The notes: generated by a model from the letters alone, not told the origin. DNA of 64,000 nt from Bryobacterales bacterium (GCA_965263255.1 CBDHHA010000008.1:4549987-4613986); one strand, 5' to 3'. Numbered from the stretch's first letter, positions 5,216-52,656 are shown. Made by a program: numbers and translations.

Positions 5216-5222
5216 CGTCCTC

Positions 5223-11401: not shown

Positions 11402-11531
11402 GAAGGCGGCCAGCAGACGCAGGCCGCTCCTTGCAAGCTCGATACGCGTAAGCCCCTCCGATACGATAGGCCAAGATTCTCGCTCGGGACGCCTTCTGAT
11501 CGCAAGGCCCGGTCCCGTCGGGCCGTCTGCA

Positions 11532-16939: not shown

Positions 16940-17154
16940 GTGGTCCTCCTCTACCTTGAGATGCCACGACTCGGCGAGGCCGTGACCGTGGTACCACATC
17001 CGGCGTGCTGAAATGACCGCAGCATGGCTGGACTTGGGGCGAATCACCGGATTTCCCTGCATTGCCCGGCCTGAAACAGGAGCAAGGGGACATTCGGGAC
17101 CGCGAGTGCGGGCATCAGCCCGGCCGGGATCGGCGATAGTGGAACTGCCTGTCC

Positions 17155-22396: not shown

Positions 22397-22503
22397 TGTG
22401 GGCTTCGGACCCGTGCAGCGGGATGCCGTGAACCCCGCCAGGTCCGGGAGGAAGCAACGGTAGCGGCCACTGCCGCGTGCCGCGGTTGTATCCGGAGCCC
22501 ATC
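22397..22503 (+). ncRNA. ffs: Signal recognition particle RNA (small/4.5S type)
   Basis: The conserved domain IV core CCAGGUCCGGGAGGAAGCAACGGUAGC closely matches the E. coli 4.5S sequence CCAGGUCCGGAAGGAAGCAGC. The closing helix pairs GGGCUUCGGA (22400-22409) with UCCGGAGCCC (22491-22500). Its position immediately upstream of dnaX is the classical arrangement. The ends are approximate. Confidence 0.8.
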
Positions 22504-25310: not shown

Positions 25311-26252
25311 TCAGGTCAGCTGCATGAACAGCTGGATCAAGGCGATCAGTTCCGGGGCCGCGTCTTCCTGGCAGAAATGGCCCGCCCGCTCGATCCGCAC
25401 CACGGGGCCTGCCGGGAACAGCGCCTGGAAGTCTGCGATCGCGAGATCCGGGGGGATCGCACGGTCGCGCATGCCCTCGGCCAGCATGGCCGGCTTGGAT
25501 CGCAAGTCCGGGACGCCGGCCGCTCCCGCCTTCACGTAGGCGCCGATCCTGTTGAGCGCAACGTCCAGCGGGAACTCCACGGCGCCCTTGCACTCCTCCG
25601 GTGTGCCGAAAGGGGCGGAGTACGCCGTCCGCTCCGTTTCGCCTAGCTCCGACGCCATCCCGAGGCGCGTCATGAGGCTGCCCGCGGTCCGTCCCAGCCC
25701 TTGCATGGTGCGGAGATAGGAGCCGTCCTCCAGTCCTGCGCGGACCCATCGGAACCAGTCCGATTCGTGGAGCTTGGGCGGCCGCGGCGCGTCCTTCGGC
25801 GCCACCATGGCTCCGTAGCCGCACACGCTGTTCATCAGGAAGATGCGCTTGACCCTCTCGGGATTCCGGACCGCGTACGCCGCGAGCATCGGGCCGCCCC
25901 AGTCCTGCCCGACGAATGTGATGCCGTCCAGCGAAAGGTCGTCGATGAGGGCGGCGAGGTTGGCGACGTGCGATTCCAGGGTGTATTCGCGGTCCTGCGG
26001 TGTCTCGCTCTTGCCGAAGCCCATGTGATCCGGAACGATCACGCGCCATTGCCGGGCCAGCGGCGGCACGAACTTGCGGTACAGGTACCCCCAGGTCGGC
26101 TCCCCGTGCAGGAGCACGATCGGCTCCCCGCTCCCCTCGTCCACGTAGTGCATCCGGAATCCCGCCGCGGTGCAGAAGCGAGCAGGGAAGGGGAAGGTGC
26201 CGTCGAACGTCTCGTGGGCGGGAATCATGTTCGCACCATCATAGGCCGGCAC
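25311..26252 (-). CDS. Alpha/beta hydrolase, haloalkane dehalogenase-like
   Basis: MHYVDEGSGEPIVLLHGEPTWGYLYR and the nucleophile-elbow motif FVGQDWGG (Asp nucleophile) are typical of the HLD/epoxide-hydrolase clade. Confidence 0.75.
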   Translation of the reverse strand: MPAYDGANMIPAHETFDGTFPFPARFCTAAGFRMHYVDEGSGEPIVLLHGEPTWGYLYRKFVPPLARQWRVIVPDHMGFGKSETPQDREYTLESHVANLAALIDDLSLDGITFVGQDWGGPMLAAYAVRNPERVKRIFLMNSVCGYGAMVAPKDAPRPPKLHESDWFRWVRAGLEDGSYLRTMQGLGRTAGSLMTRLGMASELGETERTAYSAPFGTPEECKGAVEFPLDVALNRIGAYVKAGAAGVPDLRSKPAMLAEGMRDRAIPPDLAIADFQALFPAGPVVRIERAGHFCQEDAAPELIALIQLFMQLT

Positions 26253-26362
26253 TCGGGCGGCAACCCCGGGCGAGGAGGTGGGGCATGCGAGAGCACGCTG
26301 CGAGGGCGCACCTGCGGGCGCTCCCGAAGGCAGGTGCTACACTCTGGCGAACTTCCACCGCA

Positions 26363-27805
26363 ATGCGCCGAGTCTGTTTGTTCCTGCTTCTCACGGCCTT
26401 CCATTCGGGTGCCTCCGCCCAGGTGCCCGATCAGCCGAACTTCATCGTCATCTTCGCCGACGACCAGGGCTGGGGCGATCTGGGCGTGTACGGCCACCCG
26501 GACATCCGGACCCCGCACATCGACAGCATGGCCCGCGAGGGCATCCGCTTTACGAGCTTCTACGCGGCGCCGTTCTGCGGGCCTTCCAGAGCTGCGCTGA
26601 TGACCGGCAGCTATCCGCCCCGCGCGAGTCTTGCCTTCAATCACGGCCCGAAGGCGAGCACTGGAATCCACCCCGACGAGATCACGGTAGCCGAGTTGCT
26701 CAGCGAACGCGGTTACGCGACGCGGATGATCGGAAAGTGGCATCTGGGCGACGCGCTGGAGTACCTGCCGCACCGTCATGGGTTCGACAGCTGGTTCGGC
26801 ATTCCTTTCTCCAACGACATGTGGCGCTATCACCCGGTCATGCCGGTCCGCGAGCCCGAGGACGAGCGGATGGTCTCCGCCCGACAGCGTGCGGAAATGA
26901 CCGGTTTCGCCGGCAGGGGGTCCTACTACGACTTGGAGAGGGGCCAGGGCTTCCCTCATCCTTTGCCGCTCATGCGGGACGACGAAGTCGTCGACGAGGA
27001 CCCGGACCAGCGCCGGCTCACGACCATGTACACCGAATTGGCCTTGGAATTCATCGAGGAGCACAGCAGCGAGCCGTTCTTCCTGTACCTGCCCCACGCG
27101 ATGCCGCATGTTCCGCTGTTCGTCTCGAACCAGCGCTGGGGCCGGTCGCTGCGGGGCCGGTACGGCGACGTCATCGAGGAGCTGGACTGGTCCGTCGGGC
27201 AGATCCTGGACAAGCTCAGGGAACTCGCGATTGACCGCCGGACCATGGTGGTGTACACCTCCGACAACGGCCCGTGGCTCCAGTACGGCATCGACGCCGG
27301 CTCCGCCGGCCCGCTGAAGCTCGGCAAGGGGACCACGTGGGAGGGAGGCATGCGCGTGCCGGGGATCTTCTGGATGCCGGGCTCGATCCCCGAGGGCCGG
27401 GTGAGCTCGGCCGTGGCTGCCAACATGGACCTGCTGCCCACGTTCGCGGGCCTGGCCGGCGCGGAGCTTCCGGCAGATCGCGTGCTCGATGGCCGGGACT
27501 TGTGGCCGCTGCTGAGCGGGGCCACCGACGAGTCGCCGCACGAGTACTTCTACTACTTCGCTGGCAGTGCTCCGGGAAATCCGATTCGCCTGCAGGGTGT
27601 CCGAAAGGGGAGGCACAAGCTCCGCATCGGCCGGTCTGGGAGCGGCGAGCTCGAGGCCCGGGGCCTCTACGACCTGCTGGCGGACGCTGGGGAGGAGTTC
27701 GACATCCGGGACCGGCATGCCGCCTTGGCCGAGAGCCTGCTCGAGCAGGCAGGGAGATTCCTCTCCGAGCTCGAAGCCGGGGTTCGGCCGTTGGGCGGCC
27801 GCTGA
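26363..27805 (+). CDS. Arylsulfatase (formylglycine-dependent)
   Basis: ATG 26363 gives the signal peptide MRRVCLFLLLTAFHSGASAQ. FIVIFADDQGWGD is followed by the C-x-P-x-R motif FCGPSRAALMTG. The upstream 121 codons of ORF 26000..27805 are antisense to the dehalogenase gene. Confidence 0.85.
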   Translation: MRRVCLFLLLTAFHSGASAQVPDQPNFIVIFADDQGWGDLGVYGHPDIRTPHIDSMAREGIRFTSFYAAPFCGPSRAALMTGSYPPRASLAFNHGPKASTGIHPDEITVAELLSERGYATRMIGKWHLGDALEYLPHRHGFDSWFGIPFSNDMWRYHPVMPVREPEDERMVSARQRAEMTGFAGRGSYYDLERGQGFPHPLPLMRDDEVVDEDPDQRRLTTMYTELALEFIEEHSSEPFFLYLPHAMPHVPLFVSNQRWGRSLRGRYGDVIEELDWSVGQILDKLRELAIDRRTMVVYTSDNGPWLQYGIDAGSAGPLKLGKGTTWEGGMRVPGIFWMPGSIPEGRVSSAVAANMDLLPTFAGLAGAELPADRVLDGRDLWPLLSGATDESPHEYFYYFAGSAPGNPIRLQGVRKGRHKLRIGRSGSGELEARGLYDLLADAGEEFDIRDRHAALAESLLEQAGRFLSELEAGVRPLGGR

Positions 27806-27842: not shown

Positions 27843-29186
27843 TCAGACGGATGGCGGCATGCCCAGCGACCATTCCCACGCCGACTGGACGGCCACGCCA
27901 GGGGGCGCCTCGTCCGGATACCCGTCCGCGGTCAGCGTCAGGATGCGCTTGCAGGCATCCGGCCGGGCGGTGCCTGCCGACTCCAAGGCGCGGATCTCCC
28001 GCCGGGCCGTGGCAGGATCGGACAGGTCGGCACACGCTTGGATGAGCTCCTCCTCCCCGCCCGGTCCGCGCGCAAGAAAGTCAACTTCGAACCCTTCCTC
28101 GGTCCGAACGTAAGTGACCTCGAATCCTCTCCGCTCGAGTTCCACGAGCACTGCCGTCTCGAGGGCGTGGCCTAGGTTCGCCCGGCCCGTCCTGTCGAAG
28201 ATCGGGATGAGGCCCGTGTCTACCGGATACGCCTTGCGCGGGTTCACCATCCGCTGGCGCTCCGACGCCGATTCCATCCAGATCACGCGCACCAGGAAAC
28301 TGTCATCGAGGTGATTGAGCAGTTGATGCACGGAATCCTTCCCGATCGCTATTCCCTGCGATTTCAGTGCCCCGTAGAACTTCTCGACGCTGAACAGCGA
28401 CCCGGCGTTGCCGAGCAGCTGTCGCACCAGCCAGCGAAGTCCGGTCACGTTTCGTACCTCGTGGCGCTCCACGACATCCCGCAGCATCGCGACATCCACG
28501 TAATCCCGCAGCAGCTTGCGGTGCTGGGACGGTTCAATGCCCTGGGCTTCCGGGAACCCTCCCGTCCGCAGCCAATCCATGTAGGCCCGCTCCATCGAGA
28601 GCCTGTCGCGAGCCGTCAGTGCAGTAGCCTCGAGAGGAATGTTGGCCCCTCTGTGCCGGAGTGCCTCCTCAAAGCTGAACGGATGCAGGAGCACGCTCCA
28701 CCCGCGCCCGCGAAGCGCGGTCGCGATTTCCTTGGAGAGCAAGGCTGCGGAGGAGCCCGTGACAACGACGGCGTCCCCCTCGGATTCGAGGAGGCGCCGA
28801 ACGAATCGCTCCCACCCGCTCACTAGCTGAATCTCGTCGAAGTGCCAAGTCACCCCAGCCTGCGGGCCGGCTCCCGGGAACAGTCGGTGATACTCGTGAT
28901 GCAGCAGGCCCAGATCGGAGGCCTCCAGGCCTGCAAGACGCTCGTCCTCGAACGACACGAACGGAAGCATCTGAAGGGGCATGCCTTCTCGAACCTTATC
29001 GAGGCGCATCTGGTGCAGGAGGGTCGTCTTGCCCGCCCGGCGGACTCCGACAACCGCCGTCGCCTTGCCCGGGAACTGGACTGGCCCGCGCACGTTGCGA
29101 GGCGTCAAGTCCGCCAGCGACTTCCGCGCGGAGTCCGCAAGAAGGTCCCTGAATACCTGCCTCAATGCTGGATTCGTGACCGCCAC
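27843..29186 (-). CDS. AAA_14 + DUF4143-type ATPase (function unknown)
   Basis: GTG start with AGGTGA upstream. Walker A GVRRAGKTTLL and Walker B-like DEIQ (HFDEIQLVSGWERF). The C-terminal half resembles the DUF4143 region of this widespread ATP-binding protein family. Confidence 0.75.
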   Translation of the reverse strand: MAVTNPALRQVFRDLLADSARKSLADLTPRNVRGPVQFPGKATAVVGVRRAGKTTLLHQMRLDKVREGMPLQMLPFVSFEDERLAGLEASDLGLLHHEYHRLFPGAGPQAGVTWHFDEIQLVSGWERFVRRLLESEGDAVVVTGSSAALLSKEIATALRGRGWSVLLHPFSFEEALRHRGANIPLEATALTARDRLSMERAYMDWLRTGGFPEAQGIEPSQHRKLLRDYVDVAMLRDVVERHEVRNVTGLRWLVRQLLGNAGSLFSVEKFYGALKSQGIAIGKDSVHQLLNHLDDSFLVRVIWMESASERQRMVNPRKAYPVDTGLIPIFDRTGRANLGHALETAVLVELERRGFEVTYVRTEEGFEVDFLARGPGGEEELIQACADLSDPATARREIRALESAGTARPDACKRILTLTADGYPDEAPPGVAVQSAWEWSLGMPPSV

Positions 29187-29641: not shown

Positions 29642-32600
29642 TCATTCCCGGGTGATTGCCTCGTCCAGATTCAGGACGACCCTAGCCACGGCTGTCCATG
29701 CGGCCCACTCCCGCTTCGGCCCTGCGGCAATCGCGTCGCCCGCGTGCGTCGATCCCCGGACCAGCGCCCTTGCGTCCTTGTCGCTCCTGGCGAATCGCGT
29801 GCGTGCCCTTCGAAGCAGGGACAGCAGCTCCGTGCGCTCGGCCCGCCCGGGACTGCGCGAGAGCACCCTCCGGAACAGGAACTCCGCCCGCTCGCTGTCG
29901 TTTGCCCCTCCCACGGACAGCACGGCCAAGGCCAGAGACCGGGCTGCTTCGACGAAGGTGGTCTCGTTCAGAGTGATGAGCGCTTGCAAGGGCGTGTTGG
30001 ATCGCTCCCTGCGCACGCAGGAGAACTTTCCCGACGGCGCGTCGAAGGTCTCGAAGACAGGGTAGGGCACGGATCGGTAGCGGAACACGTACAGGCCCCT
30101 GCGGTATCGCTGCCGACCCTTCGCCACGGGCCAGCGCTTGGGCCCGTAGCTGGCTGGCGGACGGAACAGGAATGCCGGGGCGGGCGGGTGGACGGGTGGA
30201 CCGCCCAGATCCTTCGACAGGAGGCCGCCGGCAGCCAGTGCGATGTCCCGGACGGTCTCCGCATCGACACGGAAACGGCCGGCCCTCGCGAGCAGGCGGT
30301 TGCGGGGATCGCGTTCCAGGAGGGAGGCAGGGATCCGCGATGACTGCCGATAGGTTGCCGAAAGGACGACCAGCCTGTGAATGTGCTTGAGGCTCCAGGT
30401 GTTGTCCATCAGCTCGACCGCCAGCCAGTCAAGCAGTTCCGGGTGGGAAGGTCCGGCGGAGCGCAGGCCCAAGTCTTCGACCGACGCGACTAGCCCGGCG
30501 CCGAAATGGCCGTGCCAGATTCGGTTGGCCACGGCCCTCGCCGTGGTCGGCGCATTGCGGTCGACCAGCCATCTGGCGAGTTCCAGCCTGCCGGGCTTCG
30601 AGTCTCCGGCAGGGCCGGGGTGCATGGAGGACGGCACGCCCGGCTCCACCGCCCCTGCGGGTCTCAGGAAGTCCCCGCGCATCAGCAGGTAAGTGGTGCG
30701 CGGCTGCTCACGCTTGACGCTGACGAGCTGGCTCGTCCCCTCGGGATGCTGTTCCCAGAGGCGCTCGATACGGTGCCTTGCGGCATCCCATGAGGGCACG
30801 GTAGAGAGCCAGTGTCGGAAGACGGCCGCTTCCTGCTGCGGGCTGCGCTGGCTCCCGGGGACGCTCGACACGATCCGCCTGACCTCAGCCGGCAGGGGAT
30901 CCGCCACGGCGCCCGGAGCGTGGGTGACGGAGAACCGGAAGCGTCCCAGGTTCTGCGAATGGTCGGCGTCGGTGTCCGAGCCGCCGTGCTTCATCGCCAG
31001 GTTGAAGCGGATCAGCGAGGGTTCGCGGACTGCGATCGGTTCCGCAAGCTGGAACACGGCCTTGCGATGGACGTTGCGTCGCCCCGGCCCGGAATCCGTG
31101 TGCCAGGCCGTCAGATCGTCGCCATCGATCGCGAGGCTGATGTCCCCGACGACGCGGGACTTTCCGTCCGCCTGCGGGAACAGTGCGGCGTCCAGGGTCC
31201 GGACCGGCGGATTGACGTCCGCGCTCGCCTGTCGTATGCGTACCGGTTCCCAGACATCGGGAGAGGCCTGGGAAGCGAAGTCGATCGTGAACTCGCTGAG
31301 GGCGGCCGTTCCCCGGAAGGACCGCCCCGGCCCGCCCAGCGGCAGCCGCGGATCGGGTATGAGTTCCAGCCGGACCGCCCGGATGACGCCAGCCTCGATG
31401 GCGGCCGTCGGGCTCACGACGCTCTGGGTCGGGGCGAATCCTTGGGCGAGGATTGACTTGTCGGGCAGGGACTGGTACTTCTCGCCGCTGCCGAGTTCGA
31501 TGCGCGCGTCGAGCGGCACCCAGGCCGGCTGGTCCCCGGCTACCGCCGCCTCCCACCCTCCCTGCCTCTCACGCCAGTCGGGAATGCTCCGGCGGAGCTC
31601 GCGCTCGACCGCCCTGATGCCTTCGAGCACCCTCTGCCGCTGCCGCTCCTCGTCTCGGTCGTAGACAGCCTGCGTGGCGTCGTAGGAATCGTTGAGCATC
31701 GCAAGCATGCGGTAGTAGTCGCCTTGCGAGATCGGGTCGTACTTGTGGTCGTGGCACTGAGCGCACTGGATCGTCAGGCCGAGCACGGCCTTGCCGATCG
31801 CATCCATGCGGTCGAACAGCGCTTCCATGCGGAACTGCTCGGGATCGGCACCTCCCTCCTCGTTGGCCATCGAGTTCCGCAGGAAGCCGGTAGCGACCCT
31901 CTGCGGCTGCCCTGCGCCCGGCAGCAGGTCGCCCGCCACCTGCTCGATCACGAACCGGTCGTACGGCATGTCCTGGTTGAGCGCCTCCACGACCCAGTCG
32001 CGGTATGCCCATACCGCTCGGGGCCGGTCCTTCTCGTAGCCGTTCGAGTCGGCGTAGCGAGCCGCGTCAAGCCATGTGCGCCCCCATCGCTCTCCGTAGT
32101 GCGGGGAGGCGAGCAGACGGTCCACCAGCCGCTCGTAGTACCCCGGGTCGTTGTCCGCGAGGAAGGCGTCCAGTTCCCCGGTCGTCGGTGGGATTCCTGT
32201 GAGATCGAGGCTGGCCCTGCGTATGAGCGTCTCCTTGCTGGCGCGTGGAGACGGCTCCATGCCGGCCGACTCAATGCGGGCCAGGACGAAGCGGTCGATC
32301 GGATTCTCGATCCATGCCTCGTCGCCGACTGCAGGCGGCCGCTGCCTCTCGGGCGACGTGTAGGCCCAGTCCGGGGGCAGTCGCGGCCGCGCCGTGCCAT
32401 CCTCGGGCCAGGGCGCACCCTCCTCGATCCACCTACGGATGAGGGCAATCTCCTGCGGGGCCAGCCTGCCCCCCATCGGCATTCGCTCGCGGGTGCCCAG
32501 ACCGGCCACCCTGCGATAGAGCTCGCTCCCTTCCGGGTTGCGCGGCACGACCCTGCGGCCGTTCGCACCTTCCCCGAGCGCGGCCTCTCGGTCGTCGAGC

Positions 32601-32764
32601 CGTAGCCCCGCCTCGGCTTCGCCCGTTCCGTGGCAGCCGTAGCAGCGCTCGCGGAAGACCGGCTCGATATCGCGGGCGAAGTCGACGTGCTCCGGATCGT
32701 GCGAACTGCAGGATAGCGCGGCCAAGGCCAGGCCGCTCAATGTCCCGGCACGCACAGCCTTCAA
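29642..32764 (-). CDS. PSCyt1-DUF1549-DUF1553 protein (planctomycete-type cytochrome c domain protein)
   Basis: The N-terminal haem motif is FRERCYGCHG. The DUF1549 region is ENPIDRFVLARIE...LIRRASLDLTGIPPT...LLASPHYGERWGRTWLDAARYADSNGYEKD. The DUF1553 region is RAVANRIWHGHFGAGLV...PSHPELLDWLA...LSATYRQSS. Confidence 0.85.
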   Translation of the reverse strand: MKAVRAGTLSGLALAALSCSSHDPEHVDFARDIEPVFRERCYGCHGTGEAEAGLRLDDREAALGEGANGRRVVPRNPEGSELYRRVAGLGTRERMPMGGRLAPQEIALIRRWIEEGAPWPEDGTARPRLPPDWAYTSPERQRPPAVGDEAWIENPIDRFVLARIESAGMEPSPRASKETLIRRASLDLTGIPPTTGELDAFLADNDPGYYERLVDRLLASPHYGERWGRTWLDAARYADSNGYEKDRPRAVWAYRDWVVEALNQDMPYDRFVIEQVAGDLLPGAGQPQRVATGFLRNSMANEEGGADPEQFRMEALFDRMDAIGKAVLGLTIQCAQCHDHKYDPISQGDYYRMLAMLNDSYDATQAVYDRDEERQRQRVLEGIRAVERELRRSIPDWRERQGGWEAAVAGDQPAWVPLDARIELGSGEKYQSLPDKSILAQGFAPTQSVVSPTAAIEAGVIRAVRLELIPDPRLPLGGPGRSFRGTAALSEFTIDFASQASPDVWEPVRIRQASADVNPPVRTLDAALFPQADGKSRVVGDISLAIDGDDLTAWHTDSGPGRRNVHRKAVFQLAEPIAVREPSLIRFNLAMKHGGSDTDADHSQNLGRFRFSVTHAPGAVADPLPAEVRRIVSSVPGSQRSPQQEAAVFRHWLSTVPSWDAARHRIERLWEQHPEGTSQLVSVKREQPRTTYLLMRGDFLRPAGAVEPGVPSSMHPGPAGDSKPGRLELARWLVDRNAPTTARAVANRIWHGHFGAGLVASVEDLGLRSAGPSHPELLDWLAVELMDNTWSLKHIHRLVVLSATYRQSSRIPASLLERDPRNRLLARAGRFRVDAETVRDIALAAGGLLSKDLGGPPVHPPAPAFLFRPPASYGPKRWPVAKGRQRYRRGLYVFRYRSVPYPVFETFDAPSGKFSCVRRERSNTPLQALITLNETTFVEAARSLALAVLSVGGANDSERAEFLFRRVLSRSPGRAERTELLSLLRRARTRFARSDKDARALVRGSTHAGDAIAAGPKREWAAWTAVARVVLNLDEAITRE

Positions 32765-32830
32765 TTGTAGGGGCGCACGCTCGGGAGATTGTCCGGCCGG
32801 AACTCGGCTGCCTTCGCCTTGGCCAAGGCT

Positions 32831-34096
32831 CTATGGACCCGCGGCGGGTATGGCCCGCTGCGCTGTCACCGGTTCGTTCGAGGCTCCCGCCGCGGACGCG
32901 GGTGCTTGCGACGACCGCAGCGCTTGGTACGTTTGCAGCGCCTTGCGCATTTCCGCGGTCTCTCCGAGCGCCCGATGGGCCTGTGCCAGGCGGTAGTGGG
33001 ACACGTGGTTGCGGCCGTTGATCGCGATTGCGGTACGAAGGTGCGCCAGCGCCAGCTCGGGCTGCCCCAGGCTTGTAAGCACCCCTCCAAGGGCGATCTG
33101 CGCCTGCTCGAACGCCGGGTAGGACTCGACCGCCTGCTCGAATAGCCTCCGGGCCCTTTCCATCTCGCCGCCCTTCCGATGGATCTCGCCCAACTCGTAC
33201 GCGGCATTGGCGTTGGTCGGATCCCCCCTCAGCTCGAGCTCGAACTGCCTCACCGCCTCGTCAACTGCCTCGGGCCCCTGGGCCGCCCGCAGCAAGGCCC
33301 GGCCCAGCCGGTAATGAATCCCACGCTGGCCGGGGTTGATCTCCAAGGCCCTGCGATACTCGGCAGCTGCCCTCTCGTACTGCCCGTCGCTCTCGTAGGC
33401 CTCTCCCGCGGCCTGCTTCGTCCAGACCGAATCGGGAGCAGCCTTGGACATCTGGCTGACCGTGACGTATGCCAGGTGCCCGAGCAGCCGCCCGGCGTGA
33501 TAGAGAACTTCCGGATCCTGCGGATACAGCTTCGTCAACTTGAGCGCGACCTCGACCGCCTCGTGATCGCGCGCCAGACCGCTGTACGACCGCTGGAGCT
33601 GAAGCCCGGCGAGCCGCTTGAGAGCCGGATCGGCGACGGACGAGAAGGAACTCTCCAATTCCGGGATCGCTTCCCGGAACCTGCCCAGCTCGCTGCGCGT
33701 GGCGGCGAGCAGGAGGGCGACGTTGGGCATCCCGCGCTTGAGCTCGACTGCCCGCTCCAGCGCGGGCGCCGCCTCCACGAATCTTCCCTGCTGGAAGTAG
33801 CTGAATCCCAGGCTGGCGTGTAGTTCCGGTATGTCGGGGCCAAACTCCAGGGCCTTCTCGAGTGCCCGCGAGGCATCCGCGTAGCGGTTCTCGATGATCG
33901 CCTGCTGGCCCTCGCCGAAGTGCAACTGGAGCAGATCGCCGGGCGGGGCGGTCTGAGCCGCTAGGCTCAGGGCCGACAGCAGCGCCGCGAGTCCGGATGC
34001 TCCCCGCCAGAACAGCACGCGTCCTCGCCCGCAGTCAGCCCAGTTGGGTCCGGGCGGATTGGCCGAGGCTGGTTCCGGGCGGAGCATCGGCTCCAT
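32831..34096 (-). CDS. TPR repeat protein, secreted (paralogous in architecture to 3350..5215)
   Basis: It has a hydrophobic leader (GLAALLSALSLAAQTAPP) and several TPR units (e.g. AAYELGEIHRKGGEMERARRLFEQAVESYP). It lies 51 nt downstream of TBDR-2 and 66 nt upstream of the PSCyt gene on the same strand. Confidence 0.75.
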   Translation of the reverse strand: MEPMLRPEPASANPPGPNWADCGRGRVLFWRGASGLAALLSALSLAAQTAPPGDLLQLHFGEGQQAIIENRYADASRALEKALEFGPDIPELHASLGFSYFQQGRFVEAAPALERAVELKRGMPNVALLLAATRSELGRFREAIPELESSFSSVADPALKRLAGLQLQRSYSGLARDHEAVEVALKLTKLYPQDPEVLYHAGRLLGHLAYVTVSQMSKAAPDSVWTKQAAGEAYESDGQYERAAAEYRRALEINPGQRGIHYRLGRALLRAAQGPEAVDEAVRQFELELRGDPTNANAAYELGEIHRKGGEMERARRLFEQAVESYPAFEQAQIALGGVLTSLGQPELALAHLRTAIAINGRNHVSHYRLAQAHRALGETAEMRKALQTYQALRSSQAPASAAGASNEPVTAQRAIPAAGP

Positions 34097-34147
34097 GGTT
34101 CGCAGGCCCGCATTCCCTGTGGAAGCGGGCCTGCGTATATTCGGAAT

Positions 34148-37100
34148 CTACCAGACGACCTTGAGACCCATCTGGTTGATCCGCGCTGCGCGCGTGCCCG
34201 TGATGCGGCCGAAGTTCGGACTCGCGCGATTCCGGTTGGGCGGACTCCATTGCGTGTGGTTGAATGCGTTGAACGACTCCAACCGCAACTGCACGCTCAG
34301 TCTCTCCGTTACGAAGAAGTTCTTGAACAGGCCCGTGTCGAAGTTGTTGATGCCGGGTGCCTCCATGATGCTCCTGCCGGAATTTCCGAGGATCCCGCGA
34401 GCCGGCTGCTCGAACGCGTCGGTGTTGAACCAGCGGTCGATCGTGCGCTGCGAGGCGGCCAGCTCGTGGTCGCCGACCACGTTCGCCCGGTTGGTTCCGA
34501 AGGTGTCGTTCAGGCCACCGAGGTCGGCTGCCTGAATCGTCATCGGGAATCCGTCCTGGAATGTCACGATGCCGTTGATCTGCCAGCCGCCGAGCACGTG
34601 ATTGGCGATTGCGGGGATACCGGACAGGAACCTCTTGCCGCGGCCGAACGGAAGCTCGTAGACGAAGCTCGTCACCAGCCTGTGGTCCACGTTGAAGTCC
34701 GACAGGCCGTAGTCGCGCCTGAAATCGTGGTTGTCGAGGAAGCCCTGCCAGCCGGCCACCGCCCCGCCCCTGCCGATGCCCGCGGCGGCGGACTTCGTGT
34801 CAAGGCTCTTGGACCAGGTGTAGGCCGAGGTGAAGATCATCGTGCTGGTGCGCTTTTCGAACTTGAAATTGAACGCGTTGTAGCTCGAGACGCCGCTCCA
34901 GTCGCTGTCGATGTAGACGCCGAAGTTCGGGTGCGGCTTCCGCGCGGCCACCGGACAGTCGCGAAGGCCCTCGTTGCCGGGAGTCCCGCAGAACACCGGA
35001 TCCTGCATCTGCAGCGCCTGCGCAATGTTCCGCCGCATCAGCAGGTGGGTGCCCTTGGTGCCGACATAGCTGAAGTCGATGATGGTGGTGCTGTCAAGTG
35101 CACGCTGGAGGCCGAAGGTCCATTGCGTGACGTAGGGGTTGCGCGGCTCCGGCGACATGCTGACCGCTAGGAAGGTGTTGAACGCCGGGTCGGCCGGATC
35201 GCCTACTCGGATTGCCGGGAACATGTTGTCGCTGGACCGCAGGGTGTTGCCCGGCCCCTCGCCGCCTGCGACGGTCTGCTGGTAGAGCCCGCGGCTGACA
35301 TAGGGGTAGATGTCCGACGCTCCGTCGATCTCGCGGCCCTCGGCGGAGTCGAAGAACACGCCGAAGCCGCCGCGGATCACAGTCTTCTCGTCATCGAACG
35401 GCCGGAATGCGAAGCCGAAGCGAGGGGCGAGCACGCGCCTCGACGCGTCGTACGGGTTCGGGCGGCCGGCGAATCGGTAATAGGACTGGTCGCCGACAAT
35501 GCCCTTGTCGACCAGGTTCTGGTCCGCGACCATCAACCCGCCGGCAGGGTTGGCGAGGTCTCGCCAGCCCATTCGGTCGTTGGTCTCGTTCGGGACGGTG
35601 CGGAAATCGTAGCGCAGCCCCAAGTTGAGAGTCAGGCGGGAATTGACCTTCCAGTCGTCTTGGAAGTAGGGAGCGAAGTACAAGAAGTTGAAGTCGCGGG
35701 GATTGCCTGCTTGGTCGCCGACCGCGAACCCGCCGGGCTGGAAGACGCTGGCGTTGCTGTAGTAGCCCAGCAGCATGTCAGCCACGGCGTGGTCCCAGTT
35801 CGCGTCGCCGGTGAAGAATCCGCGATAGGTAAACTGGCCCAGAAAGTCGTTCGCGAGATCCCGCTGAAGCGACCACTGCCGGAAGTTGGCGCCGAACTTG
35901 AACGTGTGGTTGCCGCGGATCCAGGTCGAGCCGTTCGAGATGTCCCACATGGGCTGGTTGCTTGCCTGGTAGTCGTTGACGGCGCTGCCGCCGCCCGAAA
36001 GGCCGGAGCCGTTGCCGCCGAAGCCGACGCCCGGGTACGAGCGCTGTTCCTCGTTCAGGTTGGTGAACACGCCGCTCAGGGCTAACGTGTCGATATCCGA
36101 CTGTTCGGCCAAGGCCCCGTGCTGGTTGGCCAGGGCGCGAACGTACCCGAAGCGGGACTCGTTGACGAAGGTGGCGCCTAGCGGGACCGTGTGGGAGATC
36201 TGCCAGTTCTCGGTCTCCTGCACGAAGAACACGTCGCCGAGATCGGTCGTGTTGCCGAGCGTGATGGCCGTGTAGTCTGAGTTGGTGAAGCGCCCGAAGA
36301 GGTTCCCCCATCTCCCGAGATTCTGGTCGACCCGGATCGTGTACTGGTCGACGTCCGTCGGAAGCGATCGCTGCCGGAGGTAGTTGCCGCGGTCGGAACT
36401 CGAATTGGGGCTGGGAATGAACTTCGAGACCACTAGATTGGCCAGCCGCGAATTGCGGCTCTTGGGCACGCGGTTGTCGGGGAACGGCACTGTCGGAGCG
36501 CCGACCGGGCCGCTAAGGGGGTCGAGCACGGGCAGGGGCATCGCGTCCCGGTTCGGCCCCTGGTAGCCCGTGAAGATTCCGTCCAGCTGGTCCTGGGTGG
36601 GCACGTTCAGGAACGCGAGCGACGCCCGGCGAGTGCGACGCCCTTCGAAGTTCGCCAGCCAGAACGTCTTGTTCCTGACGGCCGGGCCGCCGGCCACGAA
36701 TCCGAACTGGTTCTGGCGCAGCGGGTTCTTCGGTGTGTCGGAGAGGTTGTTGAAGAACGTGCTGGCATCGAGTGCGTCGTTGCGCAGGAAATGGAACAGC
36801 GTGCCGTGCAGCTCGTTCGTCCCGGTCTTGCTCACGATGTTGATCTGGTTCGCGCTGAAGCCGTACTCGGCGGAATAGGTCGCGGTCTGCTCCTTGAATT
36901 CCTGGATCGCGTCGATTGACAGGATCGCCGCGGGCGTCCCGAGCGCCGTGTCAGTGTTGGACGTGCCGTCCAGCAAGTAGTTGTTCGAGGTCGGGCGAGC
37001 GCCGTTGATGCTGATGGCTCCGCCGGCGTCCCGCCGCATGCTGGCCTGCTCGCCGCTCGTCTCGACTGCTCCGTTGCCAAGAAACAGGAGTTGCAAGAAG

Positions 37101-37555
37101 CTGCGGCCGTTCAGCGGCAGTTGGGTGACCTGCCTCTGGCTGACAGTGTGCCCGACCGACGCCGTTTCTGTGTCGATCGCGGCCGCGACTGCGGCCACCT
37201 CGATCGTCTCGGTGACCTCGCCGATGACCATGTCGAAATCGATCCGCAGGGTTTGGTTGACGTTCAGGCGGACATTAGTTCGCCGGGCCTGCTGGAAGCC
37301 CTCGGAGTTGGCTTGCACCGTGTAGAGTCCGACCGGCAGGAACGGGAATGTGTAATCGCCGCTCTCGTTGGTGGAGGATTCCCGGGTGAGGCCCGTCTCC
37401 TCATTGACCACGCTTACTCCAGCTCCCGGCACTACCGCGCCACTGGTGTCGCTGATCGTTCCGTTGATTTGGCCAGTGGCCGTCTGGGCGCTCAGCGCGC
37501 CTGCGAAAAGTGCTCCCACTAGCAGCGTCAGCGCTAGAGTTCGTACAGTTCTCAT
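34148..37555 (-). CDS. TonB-dependent receptor-like outer-membrane protein with CarboxypepD_reg domain (TBDR-2)
   Basis: Signal peptide MRTVRTLALTLLVGALFAGALSAQ. CarboxypepD_reg motif GQINGTISDTSGAVVPGAGVSVVNEETG...GLYTVQANSEGF. It ends in ...GLKVVW and is a paralog of TBDR-1. Confidence 0.85.
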   Translation of the reverse strand: MRTVRTLALTLLVGALFAGALSAQTATGQINGTISDTSGAVVPGAGVSVVNEETGLTRESSTNESGDYTFPFLPVGLYTVQANSEGFQQARRTNVRLNVNQTLRIDFDMVIGEVTETIEVAAVAAAIDTETASVGHTVSQRQVTQLPLNGRSFLQLLFLGNGAVETSGEQASMRRDAGGAISINGARPTSNNYLLDGTSNTDTALGTPAAILSIDAIQEFKEQTATYSAEYGFSANQINIVSKTGTNELHGTLFHFLRNDALDASTFFNNLSDTPKNPLRQNQFGFVAGGPAVRNKTFWLANFEGRRTRRASLAFLNVPTQDQLDGIFTGYQGPNRDAMPLPVLDPLSGPVGAPTVPFPDNRVPKSRNSRLANLVVSKFIPSPNSSSDRGNYLRQRSLPTDVDQYTIRVDQNLGRWGNLFGRFTNSDYTAITLGNTTDLGDVFFVQETENWQISHTVPLGATFVNESRFGYVRALANQHGALAEQSDIDTLALSGVFTNLNEEQRSYPGVGFGGNGSGLSGGGSAVNDYQASNQPMWDISNGSTWIRGNHTFKFGANFRQWSLQRDLANDFLGQFTYRGFFTGDANWDHAVADMLLGYYSNASVFQPGGFAVGDQAGNPRDFNFLYFAPYFQDDWKVNSRLTLNLGLRYDFRTVPNETNDRMGWRDLANPAGGLMVADQNLVDKGIVGDQSYYRFAGRPNPYDASRRVLAPRFGFAFRPFDDEKTVIRGGFGVFFDSAEGREIDGASDIYPYVSRGLYQQTVAGGEGPGNTLRSSDNMFPAIRVGDPADPAFNTFLAVSMSPEPRNPYVTQWTFGLQRALDSTTIIDFSYVGTKGTHLLMRRNIAQALQMQDPVFCGTPGNEGLRDCPVAARKPHPNFGVYIDSDWSGVSSYNAFNFKFEKRTSTMIFTSAYTWSKSLDTKSAAAGIGRGGAVAGWQGFLDNHDFRRDYGLSDFNVDHRLVTSFVYELPFGRGKRFLSGIPAIANHVLGGWQINGIVTFQDGFPMTIQAADLGGLNDTFGTNRANVVGDHELAASQRTIDRWFNTDAFEQPARGILGNSGRSIMEAPGINNFDTGLFKNFFVTERLSVQLRLESFNAFNHTQWSPPNRNRASPNFGRITGTRAARINQMGLKVVW

Positions 37556-38126
37556 CGTGAATTGATTCCCCTTGACAAGAATTCGAATGCCGACCGGCGA
37601 ATGCTGCCGGTCGCTCAGTGGGCATGGCCTGCACGGCCCGTACCGCAGTGAAGTATAGCCGACCCGCAGGGGTTCGGCAAGCGTGATTTACTAATTTTAC
37701 ATTTGGGCCGCTATGCATCGTCCGCAGGCCTTGCCGCTTCTGTGGTCCGCCCTTCGTGCAATCCACTCTGCGAGGCGGTCGCGGGTCACAGATGTTAACC
37801 CGGGCCCCGTGCTGTCTCTGGAACTCGAGCCCCAAATGCGAGCGAGTGGATTGTCTCGAGTGTTGCCGCCCCCGCGGCTGCTGAGCTGCGTGGCCTCGAC
37901 CGGCCTGCCGCCGACAAGCAGCGGACACTGCCCAGCCCGGCCACGCGACCACCATATGTCCCGGCTCCAGTCCCCTCCTCGACGTGTGGTCAGGGGCGTC
38001 GCGTGCCCGCAGGCTTGACCGGTAGCGAGATGAGCCGAGGCTCGACTGCAGCATCCCGGCCGGCGGCAGCTCGCGGCGGAGCGTGGACCTTGCATGCAGG
38101 ATCGCTCGCAACGAGCCGGCATGGGA

Positions 38127-38687
38127 TCACTTTCCGCTCGCCTTGGCCCAGGCGGCCCACTGCTTGCGCCGCTCTTTCGGGTCAGTCTCGGAATCGATCA
38201 GCGCCATCACGCGTCCTTCGATTCCACTCGAATCCAGGGACTTCGCGAGGTGCCCCAGTGCTGTGATCACGTCCGTGCGCACCAACCCAGCGTTCTTTGC
38301 CTCGATGCACTCCTCGTACCGTTGCGCAAGCGCATCCACGACTAGCGCAGCGCGGTCGGAGCCGGCAAGGCCGATCCGCCACAGCGATTGGAGCGCGTGC
38401 CGTGCCGTCACTGTCTTCGGGTCGCGCATGATTGCGGCTACCGATTGGAAGTCCCGGATCATCCTCGACTCCGGATCGCTGATCGCGAGGCGCGCCAGAA
38501 GCTGCGCAGCGAACGAGCGCCTCGCTCCGTCACGATGGCTCAGTTCCGCGAGCATTCGGTCCCAGACGTCGTAGGCCCAGTTGACTGGCTGCTCGGTCAT
38601 CGCGAACAGCTCCACCAGAGCCTGGTACGAAGCCCCGCGATCGGAGGAGAAGCGGGCTTCGAACAGAGCCTCAATCCGTTGTTCCAC
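38127..38687 (-). CDS. Hypothetical all-helical (HEAT/ARM-like) protein
   Basis: The 186-aa ORF has host-like codon bias and no signal peptide. I see no recognisable catalytic motif. The helical-repeat impression is by eye only. Confidence 0.5.
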   Translation of the reverse strand: MEQRIEALFEARFSSDRGASYQALVELFAMTEQPVNWAYDVWDRMLAELSHRDGARRSFAAQLLARLAISDPESRMIRDFQSVAAIMRDPKTVTARHALQSLWRIGLAGSDRAALVVDALAQRYEECIEAKNAGLVRTDVITALGHLAKSLDSSGIEGRVMALIDSETDPKERRKQWAAWAKASGK

Positions 38688-38955
38688 TGCTCAGGCCTCA
38701 CTTGCGGCGTTGGGACGAAGCGACACCAACGCGTCCCGGAAGAACGGCTCCTCGCGAATTGCGCGTGGAGCCCCGGCAGCCCCCTGGCACCCGGGATGGC
38801 GGAAGGGCAGGCTCATCAAGGCCAGCCGGCACCGGACCGTCCACCGACCTCCAGCATCCTGTCTGATTGCGACGCCGCGGCAAGGCCGGACCGGCTCGAA
38901 CGCAGGCTGATGCCTGATCCCACGGGCTCCTGGCGCTGCCCCAACGTCCTTCATG

Positions 38956-40692
38956 TCAGCCGAAGCTCTGGGCACTGACGATTCCTTCCCCTTCCCGCAG
39001 GACCAGCAGCCGGTCAGCCGCTACCGGCCCGATCCTCTCCACCTCCCCGGTCGGCCACCGGATATCGATGCTCGCCTCGGTGGCGTCGCCCAGGCCGAAA
39101 TGGAGACGCCGGTCGTTGACGGAGTAGAAGCTCGATTGCGCCTGTACCGATTGCGTCTGCACGGCGTTCCCGTAGCGGGCCGTGACGCGCGCGCCTATCG
39201 CCGCCCGGTTCGAGGTCGTGCCCACGAGCAGGACCTTCAACCAGTGCCTTTCGCTGCTGACATCGTTGCGTAGCAGCGATGGCGGCTCGTTCATGTTCAC
39301 GACCAGGATGTCCATGTCGCCGTCATTGTCGAAGTCCCCGAAGGCGCAGCCCCGCGAGGAATGCAGGGCAGTCACGCCCGGCCCGGCTTGGTCGATGATC
39401 TGCTCGAACCTGCCCCCTCCGAGATTTCGGAACACGCACCGGGGGGTCTTATACGGGTAGCGGGGCAGGCTTGCTTCCAGTTCCGGATATACGCTGCCGG
39501 TCACTAGGAAGATGTCCGGCAGTCCATCGTTGTCGAGGTCGACCATTCCCGCCCCCCAGGCGGTGAAGCGCGTCTCCACTCCGATCCTGGCTGCCAGCGT
39601 CACATCGAAGAACGAAGCGCCGCCGTCGTTGCGGTAGAGCACGTCAGTGTCGTCGGAGAAGTGCGTCTTGAAGATGTCCAGGTCGCCATCGAGATCGTAG
39701 TCGGCGACGCCTAGGCCCATGCCGGCCTGCTCCTGGCCGTCCTCGTTCATGGCGACCCCGCGGAACAGTGCGTCCTCGGTGAACGTGCCGTCCCGATTGT
39801 TCTGGAAGTAGAAGCTCGGGGACGAGTCGCACGCGACATAAATGTCGGCCCAGCCGTCGTCGTCATAGTCCGCCGCCACCGCTGTCATTCCGTAGGAGCG
39901 GCGGGCAGAGGCGATCCCGGTTTCGTCGCTGACGTCGGTGAAGTGACCGTCGCCATCGTTGCGATACAGGTAGCAGCGGGCCGGCGGCAGCCCCCGGGGG
40001 CCGCAATTGACGGGCACGCCCTCGTAGAAGCAGAAGTCATGCTCGCCGGGCTTCGGAGTCGTTTCGGGATCGAACTCCAGATAGTTGGCAACGAACAAGT
40101 CCAGATGGCCGTCCCTGTCGTAATCGACCCAGGTGCATCCGGACCCCCAGCGTCGGTCCGGCCGGAGCAGTCCTGCCTGCTCCGTCACGTCCTCGAAGCC
40201 GCCCTTGCCGTTGTTTCGATACAGCACGTCCTGCCCCCAGTACGTAATGAAGAGATCGTCGTAGCCGTCGTTGTCGTAGTCGCCGACGGTTACGGCGGAC
40301 GCCCAGCCGCTGCGTTGCAAGCCGGCTTCCTCCGTGACCTCTCGGAACGTGCCGTCCCGTTCGTTCCTGTACAGCCGGATTGACTTCTCCGGCCCGTCTG
40401 CGCCCAAGCGCGCCCCGGACAGCAGGAGCACGTCCAGCCAGCCGTCGTTGTCGTAGTCCAGGAACGCGCAGCCGCAGCCGATCGCCTCAAGGATGAACGT
40501 CGTCTTGGCGGGATCGCCGTAGATGACCGGCTCCGTCAGGCCGGCTTCGGCGGCTATGTCGGTCAGCGTGCACTCGAACGGGATCCCTGACGGGCGCGCC
40601 CGGCGCTGCGGCTGCACGTTTCGGACGGCCGGCCCCTGCGCGAGCAGGGGCGAGGCTGCGAGGCTTAGCCAGCTGCGGCGCGTCCATCTCAC
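38956..40692 (-). CDS. CRTAC1/ASPIC-UnbV family FG-GAP repeat protein, paralog 4
   Basis: Leader MRWTRRSWLSLAASPLLAQ has an RR motif. Repeats include LYRNERDGTFREVTEEAGL and DYDNDGYDD. The C-terminus is NRAAIGARVTARYGNAVQTQSVQAQSSFYSVNDRRLHFGLG. Confidence 0.85.
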   Translation of the reverse strand: MRWTRRSWLSLAASPLLAQGPAVRNVQPQRRARPSGIPFECTLTDIAAEAGLTEPVIYGDPAKTTFILEAIGCGCAFLDYDNDGWLDVLLLSGARLGADGPEKSIRLYRNERDGTFREVTEEAGLQRSGWASAVTVGDYDNDGYDDLFITYWGQDVLYRNNGKGGFEDVTEQAGLLRPDRRWGSGCTWVDYDRDGHLDLFVANYLEFDPETTPKPGEHDFCFYEGVPVNCGPRGLPPARCYLYRNDGDGHFTDVSDETGIASARRSYGMTAVAADYDDDGWADIYVACDSSPSFYFQNNRDGTFTEDALFRGVAMNEDGQEQAGMGLGVADYDLDGDLDIFKTHFSDDTDVLYRNDGGASFFDVTLAARIGVETRFTAWGAGMVDLDNDGLPDIFLVTGSVYPELEASLPRYPYKTPRCVFRNLGGGRFEQIIDQAGPGVTALHSSRGCAFGDFDNDGDMDILVVNMNEPPSLLRNDVSSERHWLKVLLVGTTSNRAAIGARVTARYGNAVQTQSVQAQSSFYSVNDRRLHFGLGDATEASIDIRWPTGEVERIGPVAADRLLVLREGEGIVSAQSFG

Positions 40693-51149: not shown

Positions 51150-51537
51150 GGCACCGAGGATTCTCGCACAGAAGGGTGTGGGAGCCGGCAGCCACTTAGG
51201 TGCTTCCCGGCTTGCGCAACGCGGAGAAGGCCGAACGGCGACGAGCGGCGGACGCCCCCGTTCCAGACGCGCCCTTCCCAATGCCTGCTAGGCTTCCATA
51301 CGCCATCCGTCACTGTCGGCGCATGAGTTGGACGGGATGCCTCGGGGCGAATGCCGGACGGAACGGCAAGCTTGGGTAAGGACTAGAATGAGTTCGAGCG
51401 ACGCCGGGCTCATTGGACACCGTTCCGGATGAGCCAGGGCTACTTCCGTGGAGCAGCCGGATGCAAGGCCGGTCGCAGCGTAAGAATCCTGCATACGTCG
51501 TTACGGGACGTTGCCAAGGCACGAAGTGGAGTCGAGT

Positions 51538-52656
51538 ATGGCCGGACATCAGGACCGGATTACCGAAATCAAGGTCTCCAACTATCGGAGTATCGGGCAA
51601 GAGCAGCAGGTCGAACTCGGGCGGCTGACAGTACTCGTCGGACCCAACGGTTCTGGCAAGAGCAACCTAGTCGATGTGCTCAGCTTCGTGCGCGATGCAA
51701 TGCACAATGGCCTCTCGGCCGCAATCACGGGCCGGGGTGGCATCGACGCTGTGCGGCGCAAGAGTGCAGGGCGAGGGCGTCCCTGTAACGTAACCATCCA
51801 GCTATCGGTCAGCCTTGAGTCCGGACAGGGCTCCTACGAATTCGAGATCTCAGGGGACCGGAGAGAGGAGTATCGCGTCAAGTCGGAATCGGCGTTCGTT
51901 CGTCTGAGCGATGGGCCGCAGCGGTTCAGGGTCGAAAAGGGAATCTGGCAGGGACCGGAGGGGCTTGAGCCGAAGATCAGTGACACAGGGCTCGCGCTTC
52001 CCGCTGTGGCTGGGGATGACCGATTCCGTCCTTTGTTTGAATTGATATCACGAGTGGTTATCTATGCCATCTTCCCCGACACGCTGCGAGAACCCCAGAA
52101 ACCCAACCCCGAGAAGCCGATGCACAGGCACGGCGAAAATTGGGTCTCAATTCTGCGGAATCAGGAAGTGTCCACGTGGAAGCCAGAACTCGTTGCCGGG
52201 CTCAAGTATCTCATCGGCGATGTAAGCGACATTAGGGTCAATAGAGTTGCGAATTTCCTGGTTGCGCAGTTCCGACACGGGCAGGGGAGGTGGTTTGATG
52301 CGGGCCAGGAGTCTGACGGCACGCTTCGGGTTGCGGGAATCCTAACCGCCCTGTTGCAAGAGCCGCCACTGCCACTCGTCGGTATCGAGGAGCCTGAACT
52401 GACAATTCACCCTGGAGCGCTTCCAATGTTGATGGACTACCTGCGGCAGGCCAGTGACATATCTCAGGTGCTCCTTACCTCCCACAGCCCCGAGCTGTTG
52501 GATCTTGTCGAAACGGATGAAGTCCGAGTGGTGGCCCGAGCGAATGGCGCAACGCGAATCCGTCCTATGGCGGGGCACCAGAGGGATGTTGTCAAGAGCC
52601 GACTGCTGACCCTCGGCGAGCTCATGACGACTGAAGGCCTATTGCAGCAATTGTGA
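51538..52656 (+). CDS. ABC/SMC-type AAA ATPase (AAA_15/AAA_21-like), partner of the DUF4276 gene
   Basis: ATG 51538 lies 6 nt after GGAG. The opening IKVSNYRSIG precedes Walker A GPNGSGKSN. Signature-like ESDGTLRVAGIL, Walker B LVGIEEPE, H-loop LTSHSPELL. Its stop overlaps the next gene's start (GTGA). Confidence 0.8.
   Translation: MAGHQDRITEIKVSNYRSIGQEQQVELGRLTVLVGPNGSGKSNLVDVLSFVRDAMHNGLSAAITGRGGIDAVRRKSAGRGRPCNVTIQLSVSLESGQGSYEFEISGDRREEYRVKSESAFVRLSDGPQRFRVEKGIWQGPEGLEPKISDTGLALPAVAGDDRFRPLFELISRVVIYAIFPDTLREPQKPNPEKPMHRHGENWVSILRNQEVSTWKPELVAGLKYLIGDVSDIRVNRVANFLVAQFRHGQGRWFDAGQESDGTLRVAGILTALLQEPPLPLVGIEEPELTIHPGALPMLMDYLRQASDISQVLLTSHSPELLDLVETDEVRVVARANGATRIRPMAGHQRDVVKSRLLTLGELMTTEGLLQQL

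Follow-up and report, generated by a model that had tools for sequence, protein, structure and literature searches.

The 64,000-nucleotide stretch of DNA analyzed here, referred to as the window, belongs to a Bryobacterales-like organism within the Acidobacteriota and carries on its minus strand, in a region that we call locus 2, three closely spaced genes. They encode a TonB-dependent receptor (TBDR2), a tetratricopeptide repeat (TPR) protein (TPR2) and a haem protein that combines PSCyt1, DUF1549 and DUF1553 domains (here referred to as PSC). As read from the sequence, these genes form a tight operon, presumably transcribed as one unit, which is the core of the locus. An earlier note on this DNA had placed CRTAC1-4, a small protein, TBDR2, TPR2 and PSC on this strand in that order, with gaps of 51 and 66 nt between the last three; the order agrees with the Pfam assignments, and the gap lengths are correct for the maximal open reading frames (ORFs). 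We report here the gene content of locus 2 and of a second region, locus 1, that contains the same families, together with their synteny in related genomes and a census of the gene families that neighbor them.

Likely genes of the window, which has a G+C content of about 66%, were chosen by third-position G+C (GC3), and most of them were then scanned with Pfam. For comparison, 80 genome loci were gathered with PSC as the anchor, and a metagenome scan with TBDR2 as the anchor returned 80 loci, 58 of which reach 900 nt or more beyond the TBDR on its downstream side; the latter are metagenomic contigs without taxonomic assignment. Given this anchoring, frequencies in either set are not genome-wide. 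The genes of the fetched loci, which carry L numbers below, are raw ORFs passed through composition filters. The fetched flanks span up to 10 kb per side, and L082 stops just past PSC. The closest relatives of PSC are found in Bryobacterales and in other Acidobacteriota metagenome-assembled genomes.

The operon at locus 2

L081, L082, L083/L084 and L002 share the order TBDR-TPR-PSC with the window; their PSC proteins are 99%, 73%, 69% and 64% identical, respectively, to that of the window. Across L002, L082 and L083, identity amounts to 89 to 93% for the TBDR, 72 to 80% for the TPR protein and 64 to 73% for PSC. We also observed that the TBDR is far better conserved among these relatives than its operon partners. 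Upstream of TBDR2, an AT-rich stretch precedes a promoter-like -35/-10 site, which is a consensus match only. An ORF at 37401-38111 that overlaps the 5' end of TBDR2 and the intergenic, promoter-like region in front of it failed the GC3 filter and is probably not a gene. An Rfam scan of the window revealed no riboswitch upstream of TBDR2 or of TBDR1, the receptor of locus 1; its only match was the signal recognition particle (SRP) RNA (RF00169, 67.9 bits), which lies just upstream of dnaX-ybaB-recR.

TBDR2 is predicted to be an outer-membrane TonB-dependent transporter (TBDT) of the Oar/CarboxypepD_reg subclass. Its Pfam matches are CarboxypepD_reg (E 4e-22) and OMP_b-brl_4 (E 8e-208, residues 241-1128), and the latter supplies the 22-strand beta-barrel domain. 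The protein further has a signal peptide, ETIEVAA at residues 115-121, the motifs LPLNGRSF and ISINGARPTSNNYLLDG, and a C-terminal W; ETIEVAA, LPLNGRSF and ISINGARPTSNNYLLDG may represent the TonB box and the plug. The Plug domain (PF07715) gave no match in TBDR2 at E<=0.01. Homologues at 64% identity have precomputed matches to Plug or PF00593 and bear the NCBI name "TonB-dependent receptor," and PF00593 is present in some homologues at 62 to 67% identity. The top 50 Foldseek matches of a TBDR2 model were all TBDTs, with E values down to 6e-10, a result that is supportive only because the model is poor (pLDDT 42). Export signals of the Sec or twin-arginine translocation type are visible in TBDR2 and also in TPR1 and X554 of locus 1 and in CRTAC1, while TPR2 and PSC have hydrophobic, signal-like N-termini.

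Two further genes lie upstream of the operon. The first, CRTAC1-4, encodes a protein that matches the human CRTAC1 structure 9etn (E 9e-16), and like all four CRTAC1 proteins of the window, it combines an FG-GAP beta-propeller with a C-terminal UnbV_ASPIC domain according to Pfam. Its N-terminal TRRSWL resembles a twin-arginine signal, and it is predicted to be exported. An orthologue is present upstream of the TBDR in L081, L083 and L002. Since CRTAC1 is missing upstream in L082 and the intervening genes differ among the relatives, we regard CRTAC1-4 as a loosely linked neighbor in a separate transcription unit and not as a member of the operon. The second gene encodes the small protein of 186 aa, which has no Pfam, NCBIfam or PADLOC-relevant match and no signal peptide; it is present in L081 and L082 and absent from L083 and L002. 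It was considered and rejected as a component of the system on account of the missing signal peptide and its patchy presence and probably stands outside it.

On the other side of the operon, convergent sulfatase-family genes lie downstream of PSC in the window, in L081, in L083/L084 (L083 15105-16442) and in L002 (14803-17527). Such a neighbor is thus present in all lineages for which this stretch is available. These neighbors are about 29% identical to each other, so what recurs is the family, with a different gene each time. Directly after PSC, the window encodes an ATPase with AAA_14 and DUF4143 domains, which is also the PADLOC candidate PDC-S01 (E 9e-88). It occupies the usual position of DUF1501 and is found in the 99% identical strain as well; in related genomes, a mechanosensitive-channel gene stands in its place, and the position is thus variable.

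The TBDR-TPR pair and the genes behind it

An orthologue of TPR2, with 41 to 54% identity over 330 to 420 aa, directly follows the TBDR in 45 of the 58 metagenomic loci. The orthologues begin with ordinary signal peptides, which end in LLAQ(Q), and share no conserved lipobox; to judge from these sequences, TPR2 itself is apparently a Sec-exported TPR protein and not a lipoprotein. We considered whether TPR2 is a SusD homologue and rejected this, as it matches canonical TPR families only and a conserved lipobox is missing among its orthologues; it differs from SusD in family and probably also in location.

The gene that follows the TPR gene codes for a CRTAC1 protein in 7 to 9 loci, often with gaps of 0 to 30 nt, for a GH106 rhamnosidase in 6, for a GH39-like protein in 5, for a sugar-isomerase-like protein in 3 and for an apiosidase-like protein in 2; GH78 and a carboxylesterase also occur there. 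Counting as many as three downstream genes, 80 proteins altogether, we obtained GH106 11 times, CRTAC1 7 to 8 times, GH39 7 times and an AraA-like isomerase 4 times, with GH78, apiosidase-like proteins and MGH1-like glycoside hydrolases found twice each. Upstream of the TBDR-TPR loci, the census contained IclR helix-turn-helix (HTH) regulators with a sugar-binding domain (6 to 7 times) as well as GH106 and GH78. Because glycoside hydrolases lie downstream and sugar-binding regulators upstream, loci of this TBDR-TPR family carry a carbohydrate-utilization signature. In the lineage of the window, the slot that enzymes occupy elsewhere after the TBDR-TPR pair is held by PSC. He 2017 (PMC5615132) put forward that PSCyt genes "mirror" glycoside hydrolases and occur close to sulfatases, a suggestion that fits the position of PSC in an enzyme slot with sulfatases nearby.

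PSC, its missing DUF1501 neighbor and locus 1

PSC contains PSCyt1 (E 2e-12), PSCyt2 (DUF1549; E 9e-88) and PSD1 (DUF1553; E 1e-87), all above the Pfam cutoffs, and CXXCH motifs at residues 41 and 334; gene callers place its start 3 codons later than that of the 1,040-aa ORF. The earlier note had stated that DUF1549/DUF1553 proteins are normally encoded next to a DUF1501 protein and that the one in the window is not, and we can confirm both points. A DUF1501 ORF lies directly downstream of the PSC relative in 48 of the 80 genome loci, four of these ORFs being confirmed by Pfam with E values below 1e-150, in line with published work (PMC3542564). In the window, hidden Markov model (HMM) and tblastn searches found no DUF1501 gene adjoining PSC, and none was present among the genes scanned with Pfam. 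When 56 ORFs from downstream of PSC relatives, most of them DUF1501, were searched against the window with tblastn, there was no match, and we therefore rejected the idea that the gap behind PSC contains a DUF1501 pseudogene.

In L081, L083/L084 and L002, too, PSC is not followed by DUF1501. PSC relatives at 61 to 62% identity (L001 and L085/L086) have the usual DUF1501 neighbor and are without a TBDR or TPR gene. In a neighbor-joining tree, the PSC proteins linked to a TBDR group together in a single clade, the sister of the DUF1501-linked ones, and this clade lacks a DUF1501 neighbor in every genome seen. Given this sister relationship, the simplest reading is that PSC relocated once, to a place behind the TBDR-TPR pair, and that the adjacent DUF1501 gene was lost. 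The joining of PSC to a TBDR occurred on more than one occasion, as a PSC of another lineage lies directly behind a TBDR in L141, an independent case.

Locus 1 was described earlier as holding three CRTAC1 genes, TPR1, TBDR1 and a multihaem cytochrome, with a DUF1501-like gene at its head; Pfam and the count of CXXCH motifs support this list of families (Table 1). For CRTAC1-3, the alignment to CRTAC1-2 starts at residue 92, and the real start of the gene is probably near 11526. The label "DUF1501-like" for the head gene, X554, needs qualification: the protein has no Pfam match above the gathering score and no NCBIfam match. A DUF1501 HMM that we derived from the fetched loci nevertheless matches it (E 7e-4) through LIYWFMEGAWMSYDMF and IVLSSEFGRT, and a profile-profile comparison with DUF1501 by hhalign gave a probability of 78% (E 1.8e-5). 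A homologue at 39% identity has a weak precomputed Pfam match to DUF1501. Foldseek gave no significant match for an AlphaFold model of X554 (pLDDT 64, pTM 0.75), though 36 of the 37 matches listed belong to the alkaline-phosphatase superfamily, and phmmer against the PDB gave no useful match. The family is rare, with 81 representatives, mostly fragments, among 1.84 billion clustered proteins. Calling X554 "DUF1501-like" is therefore defensible only in the sense of remote homology, and in that sense it is the only such sequence in the window.

The same note had also proposed that the usual DUF1553/DUF1501 partnership is split between the two loci, with X554 as the counterpart of PSC. Directly in front of the X554 homologues of L089 (88% identity) and L088 (39%) lies, in each case, a gene for a protein of 850 to 890 aa, and the 886-aa protein in L089 has a weak PSCyt2 (DUF1549) match and a CYSCH motif. 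The very start of the window encodes the last 113 residues of the counterpart of this 886-aa protein, at 80% identity; L087, the context of a 47% identical X554 homologue, stops just past that gene. X554 thus comes with a DUF1549-like haem partner of its own, directly upstream, and the partnership is therefore not split. The lack of a DUF1501 neighbor throughout the TBDR-linked PSC clade speaks against the proposal as well. L089 keeps the order of locus 1: the partner and X554 come first, followed by the cytochrome, the TPR gene and a pair of CRTAC1 genes, then by the oppositely oriented ankyrin gene and one more CRTAC1 gene, with identities to the window of 78% for TPR1 and 69% for the ankyrin protein.

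A duplication of one locus into the other found no support either. TBDR1 and TBDR2 are 26 to 29% identical, TPR1 and TPR2 about 30% over 185 aa that comprise repeats only, and the four CRTAC1 proteins 48 to 63%; orthologues elsewhere are 43 to 93% identical to TBDR2 and 41 to 80% to TPR2. We conclude that TPR1 is not orthologous to TPR2 and that TBDR1 is a distant paralogue of TBDR2. A recent locus duplication was rejected, since identities between the paralogues are far below those between orthologues. Locus 1 is a separate system assembled from the same families, with its own divergent pair of DUF1549-like and DUF1501-like proteins, and is not the half that locus 2 lacks.

That these families belong together is supported independently of their recurrence in the window. 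In L014 and L020, loci of distant Acidobacteriota (42% PSC identity), genes for CRTAC1, a PSC-DUF1501 pair, CRTAC1-TPR and a multihaem cytochrome form a cluster; L014 was scanned with Pfam, and a similar gene order was seen in L020 by BLAST. In L014, one CRTAC1 gene is directly upstream of the PSC-DUF1501 pair, and a second overlaps the TPR gene by 4 nt. The same locus encodes (3425-5578) a 717-aa fusion of a multihaem cytochrome, with paired CXXCH motifs and resembling cytochrome c7, to TPR repeats. The parts of this fusion correspond to the adjacent cytochrome and TPR1 genes of locus 1, which hints that these two proteins work together.

Table 1. Coordinates of features in the window
Feature	Position	Strand	Remarks
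DUF1549-like haem protein, C-terminal 113 codons	2-340	+	locus 1; cut by window start
X554, 554 aa	423-2087	+	locus 1; twin-arginine (RRGFL) signal; remote DUF1501 relative
Heptahaem c-type cytochrome	2105-3307	+	locus 1; 7 CXXCH motifs; weak multihaem Pfam matches
TPR1, 621 aa	3350-5215	+	locus 1; Pfam
CRTAC1-1	5154-6941	+	Pfam; end of locus 1 operon
CRTAC1-2	6938-8680	+	Pfam; overlaps CRTAC1-1 by 4 nt
Ankyrin-repeat protein, 881 aa	8756-11401	-	mid-locus 1; almost all ankyrin repeats
CRTAC1-3	11253-13292	+	locus 1; Pfam
TBDR1	13436-17062	-	locus 1; Pfam; no TPR gene after it
SRP RNA	22402-22501	+	Rfam
Sulfatase-family gene	26000-27805	+	Pfam Sulfatase and SGSH_C; convergent with locus 2 operon
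AAA_14/DUF4143 ATPase	27843-29186	-
PSC, 1040 aa	29642-32764	-	third gene of locus 2 operon; Pfam PSCyt1, PSCyt2 and PSD1
TPR2, 421 aa	32831-34096	-	locus 2 operon; Pfam, TPR families only
TBDR2, 1135 aa	34148-37555	-	first gene of locus 2 operon; Pfam CarboxypepD_reg and OMP_b-brl_4
Promoter-like -35/-10 site	37652-37680	-	about 100 nt upstream of TBDR2; consensus match only
186-aa protein	38127-38687	-	without family match
CRTAC1-4	38956-40692	-	Pfam, 6 FG-GAP_3 repeats and UnbV_ASPIC
HEC-01A	51511-52656		PADLOC, E 8e-100
HEC-01B/DUF4276	52653-53312		PADLOC, E 6e-31
OLD/Gabija-like ATPase	53556-55286		follows HEC-01 pair

Away from the two loci, PADLOC identified a candidate antiphage pair, HEC-01A and HEC-01B, which is followed by a gene for an OLD/Gabija-like ATPase. 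The G+C content falls to 0.60 across this region (51511-55286), which suggests a horizontally acquired island.

Carbohydrate uptake and alternative explanations

On balance, with a probability of roughly 0.55, we favor the view that locus 2 is a TBDR2-TPR2-PSC operon built on a carbohydrate-uptake pair, with CRTAC1 loosely linked and PSC as swapped cargo. The TBDR-TPR pair, which would be widespread in Acidobacteriota, may form the uptake front end of carbohydrate-utilization loci, and the slot behind it may take exchangeable cargo, usually a glycoside hydrolase (mostly rhamnosidases), often CRTAC1 and here PSC. TBDR2 would carry a glycan-derived substrate into the periplasm, TPR2 could serve there as an adaptor or binding partner, and PSC would process the substrate in the same compartment without an adjacent DUF1501 protein, possibly alongside the nearby sulfatases. 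What we infer from gene neighborhoods is the substrate, which way it is transported and what the TPR, PSC and CRTAC1 proteins do. The functional module resembling a polysaccharide-utilization locus (PUL) that the earlier note envisaged is in this respect upheld for the TBDR-TPR family, and through it for the operon, by conservation across genomes, and not by the recurrence of the families within the window from which it had been argued.

Several observations weigh against this view. The locus in the window contains no carbohydrate-active enzyme (CAZyme) and no sugar-sensing regulator recognizable by Pfam, so its carbohydrate link comes from homologous loci only, and these were sampled with the TBDR as anchor and their genes, in the metagenomic loci, called as raw ORFs. 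The analogy with SusC/SusD is loose because TPR2 is not SusD-like and its orthologues share no conserved lipobox. Between CRTAC1-4 and the operon lie an unrelated gene and two gaps, 268 and 571 nt long. Lastly, the structural model of TBDR2 is a poor one, and no solved TBDT in the PDB matches the protein by sequence: phmmer gave no useful match, and a TBDR profile matched only a carboxypeptidase-D regulatory domain.

The operon and its homologues can be compared with known systems. As in the PULs of Bacteroidota, a TBDT with a carboxypeptidase-regulatory-like N terminus is followed by an all-helical repeat protein, and the homologous loci add variable glycan enzymes and a regulator. Unlike in those PULs, the partner is a canonical TPR protein and not a SusD/RagB lipoprotein, the host belongs to the Acidobacteriota, and in the window a haem protein fills the enzyme slot of a locus without CAZyme or regulator. 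The CUT loci of Xanthomonas and similar bacteria provide a SusD-less arrangement outside the Bacteroidota, in which a TBDT gene shares a cluster with glycoside hydrolase genes and a regulator gene; to our knowledge, they have not been described with an obligatory TPR partner. In the open-access literature, we found no paper on the acidobacterial TBDR-TPR pair or on PSC as its cargo. The module of DUF1501 with PSCyt1/PSCyt2/PSD1 is known from Planctomycetes and Verrucomicrobia (Kamneva 2012, PMC3542564; He 2017, PMC5615132). PSC has exactly its PSCyt1-PSCyt2-PSD1 architecture and, as in Verrucomicrobia, sulfatases nearby, but it is not followed by DUF1501 and is the third gene of a TBDR-TPR operon; the pair in locus 1 is a much more divergent version of the module.

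A bolder form of the favored view is that PSC-type and CRTAC1 proteins are themselves periplasmic glycan processors, interchangeable with glycoside hydrolases as cargo of the TBDR-TPR pair and acting by a nonhydrolytic, possibly redox, route of glycan breakdown that a TonB-dependent importer would supply and that here dispenses with DUF1501, with sulfatases perhaps substituting for it. We put this forward tentatively and consider it more doubtful than the swapped-cargo view itself.

A different possibility is that the system exports and does not import, with PSC, CRTAC1 and glycoside hydrolases as the cargo leaving the cell through an Oar-like TBDR2 and the TPR protein as a periplasmic chaperone. 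Oar of Myxococcus xanthus is a TBDT that is required for secretion of the protease PopC (PMC6434023), and because TBDR2 falls into the same TBDT subclass, with the same CarboxypepD_reg N-terminal extension, export stays a live alternative. The enzymes encoded downstream are exported ones and could do useful work in the extracellular space, and a soluble TPR protein would suit the role of a chaperone. However, Oar is the one such case known, importers of the SusC type also bear such an extension, and the sugar-sensing regulators and cytoplasmic sugar isomerases of the homologous loci fit uptake and catabolism. TBDR2 has a TPR partner and belongs to a family with CAZyme neighbors, neither of which has been reported for Oar. 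We regard export as unlikely.

We judge rather improbable a role without carbohydrates, be it import of a metal complex or haem through the TBDR or electron conduction across the envelope by the haem proteins. Both loci encode c-type haem proteins, namely PSC in one and the heptahaem cytochrome and the DUF1549-like protein in the other, iron complexes are classical substrates of TBDT import, and a role in electron transport has been suggested for the DUF1501/PSCyt module (PMC3542564). The genes found with orthologous TBDR-TPR pairs, however, are overwhelmingly those of glycoside hydrolases and sugar regulators and not siderophore or haem genes; the Rfam scan of the window detected no riboswitch before the TBDR, and Pfam revealed no Fur and no extracytoplasmic function (ECF) sigma/anti-sigma gene in the locus.

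The co-location could also be due to chance, given that CRTAC1, TBDR, TPR and PSCyt families have high copy numbers in the large genomes of acidobacteria, in which case two clusters within 40 kb would be meaningless. TBDR and ASPIC/UnbV proteins form large paralogue families in Solibacter usitatus (PMC3174227), CRTAC1-4 is neither contiguous with the operon nor present upstream in L082, and the two loci share no recent ancestry. Chance would not explain an orthologous TPR gene next to the TBDR in so many metagenomic loci, nor TBDR-TPR-CRTAC1 arrangements with gaps of 0 to 30 nt in at least seven of them, and for the operon itself it is already refuted by synteny, the order TBDR-TPR-PSC being kept down to 64% PSC identity; taken as a whole, this explanation is improbable. 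Least probable is the idea that the DUF1553 protein of locus 2 and X554 form one partnership housed in duplicate loci, for even though PSC lacks a DUF1501 neighbor and X554 is the only candidate in the window, this is already contradicted by the conserved upstream partner of X554 in L088 and L089, by PSC orthologues without DUF1501 in lineages whose fetched flanks show no locus 1 genes, and by the distant TBDRs and nonorthologous TPR proteins.

The swapped-cargo view bears on two very large families. Soil and aquatic Acidobacteriota, Planctomycetota and Verrucomicrobiota encode a great many DUF1549/DUF1553/DUF1501 proteins and bacterial CRTAC1 proteins, whose function has not been established. 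Finding PSC in the glycoside hydrolase slot of a conserved TonB-dependent operon leads to a testable hypothesis, namely that these proteins act in the periplasm on imported glycans; if PSC-type and CRTAC1 proteins are indeed glycan-processing cargo, this would provide the first functional handle on these families. In addition, the TBDR-TPR pair may be the acidobacterial counterpart of SusC/SusD, and if so, it would help to predict which polymers are consumed by dominant but poorly cultured soil bacteria.

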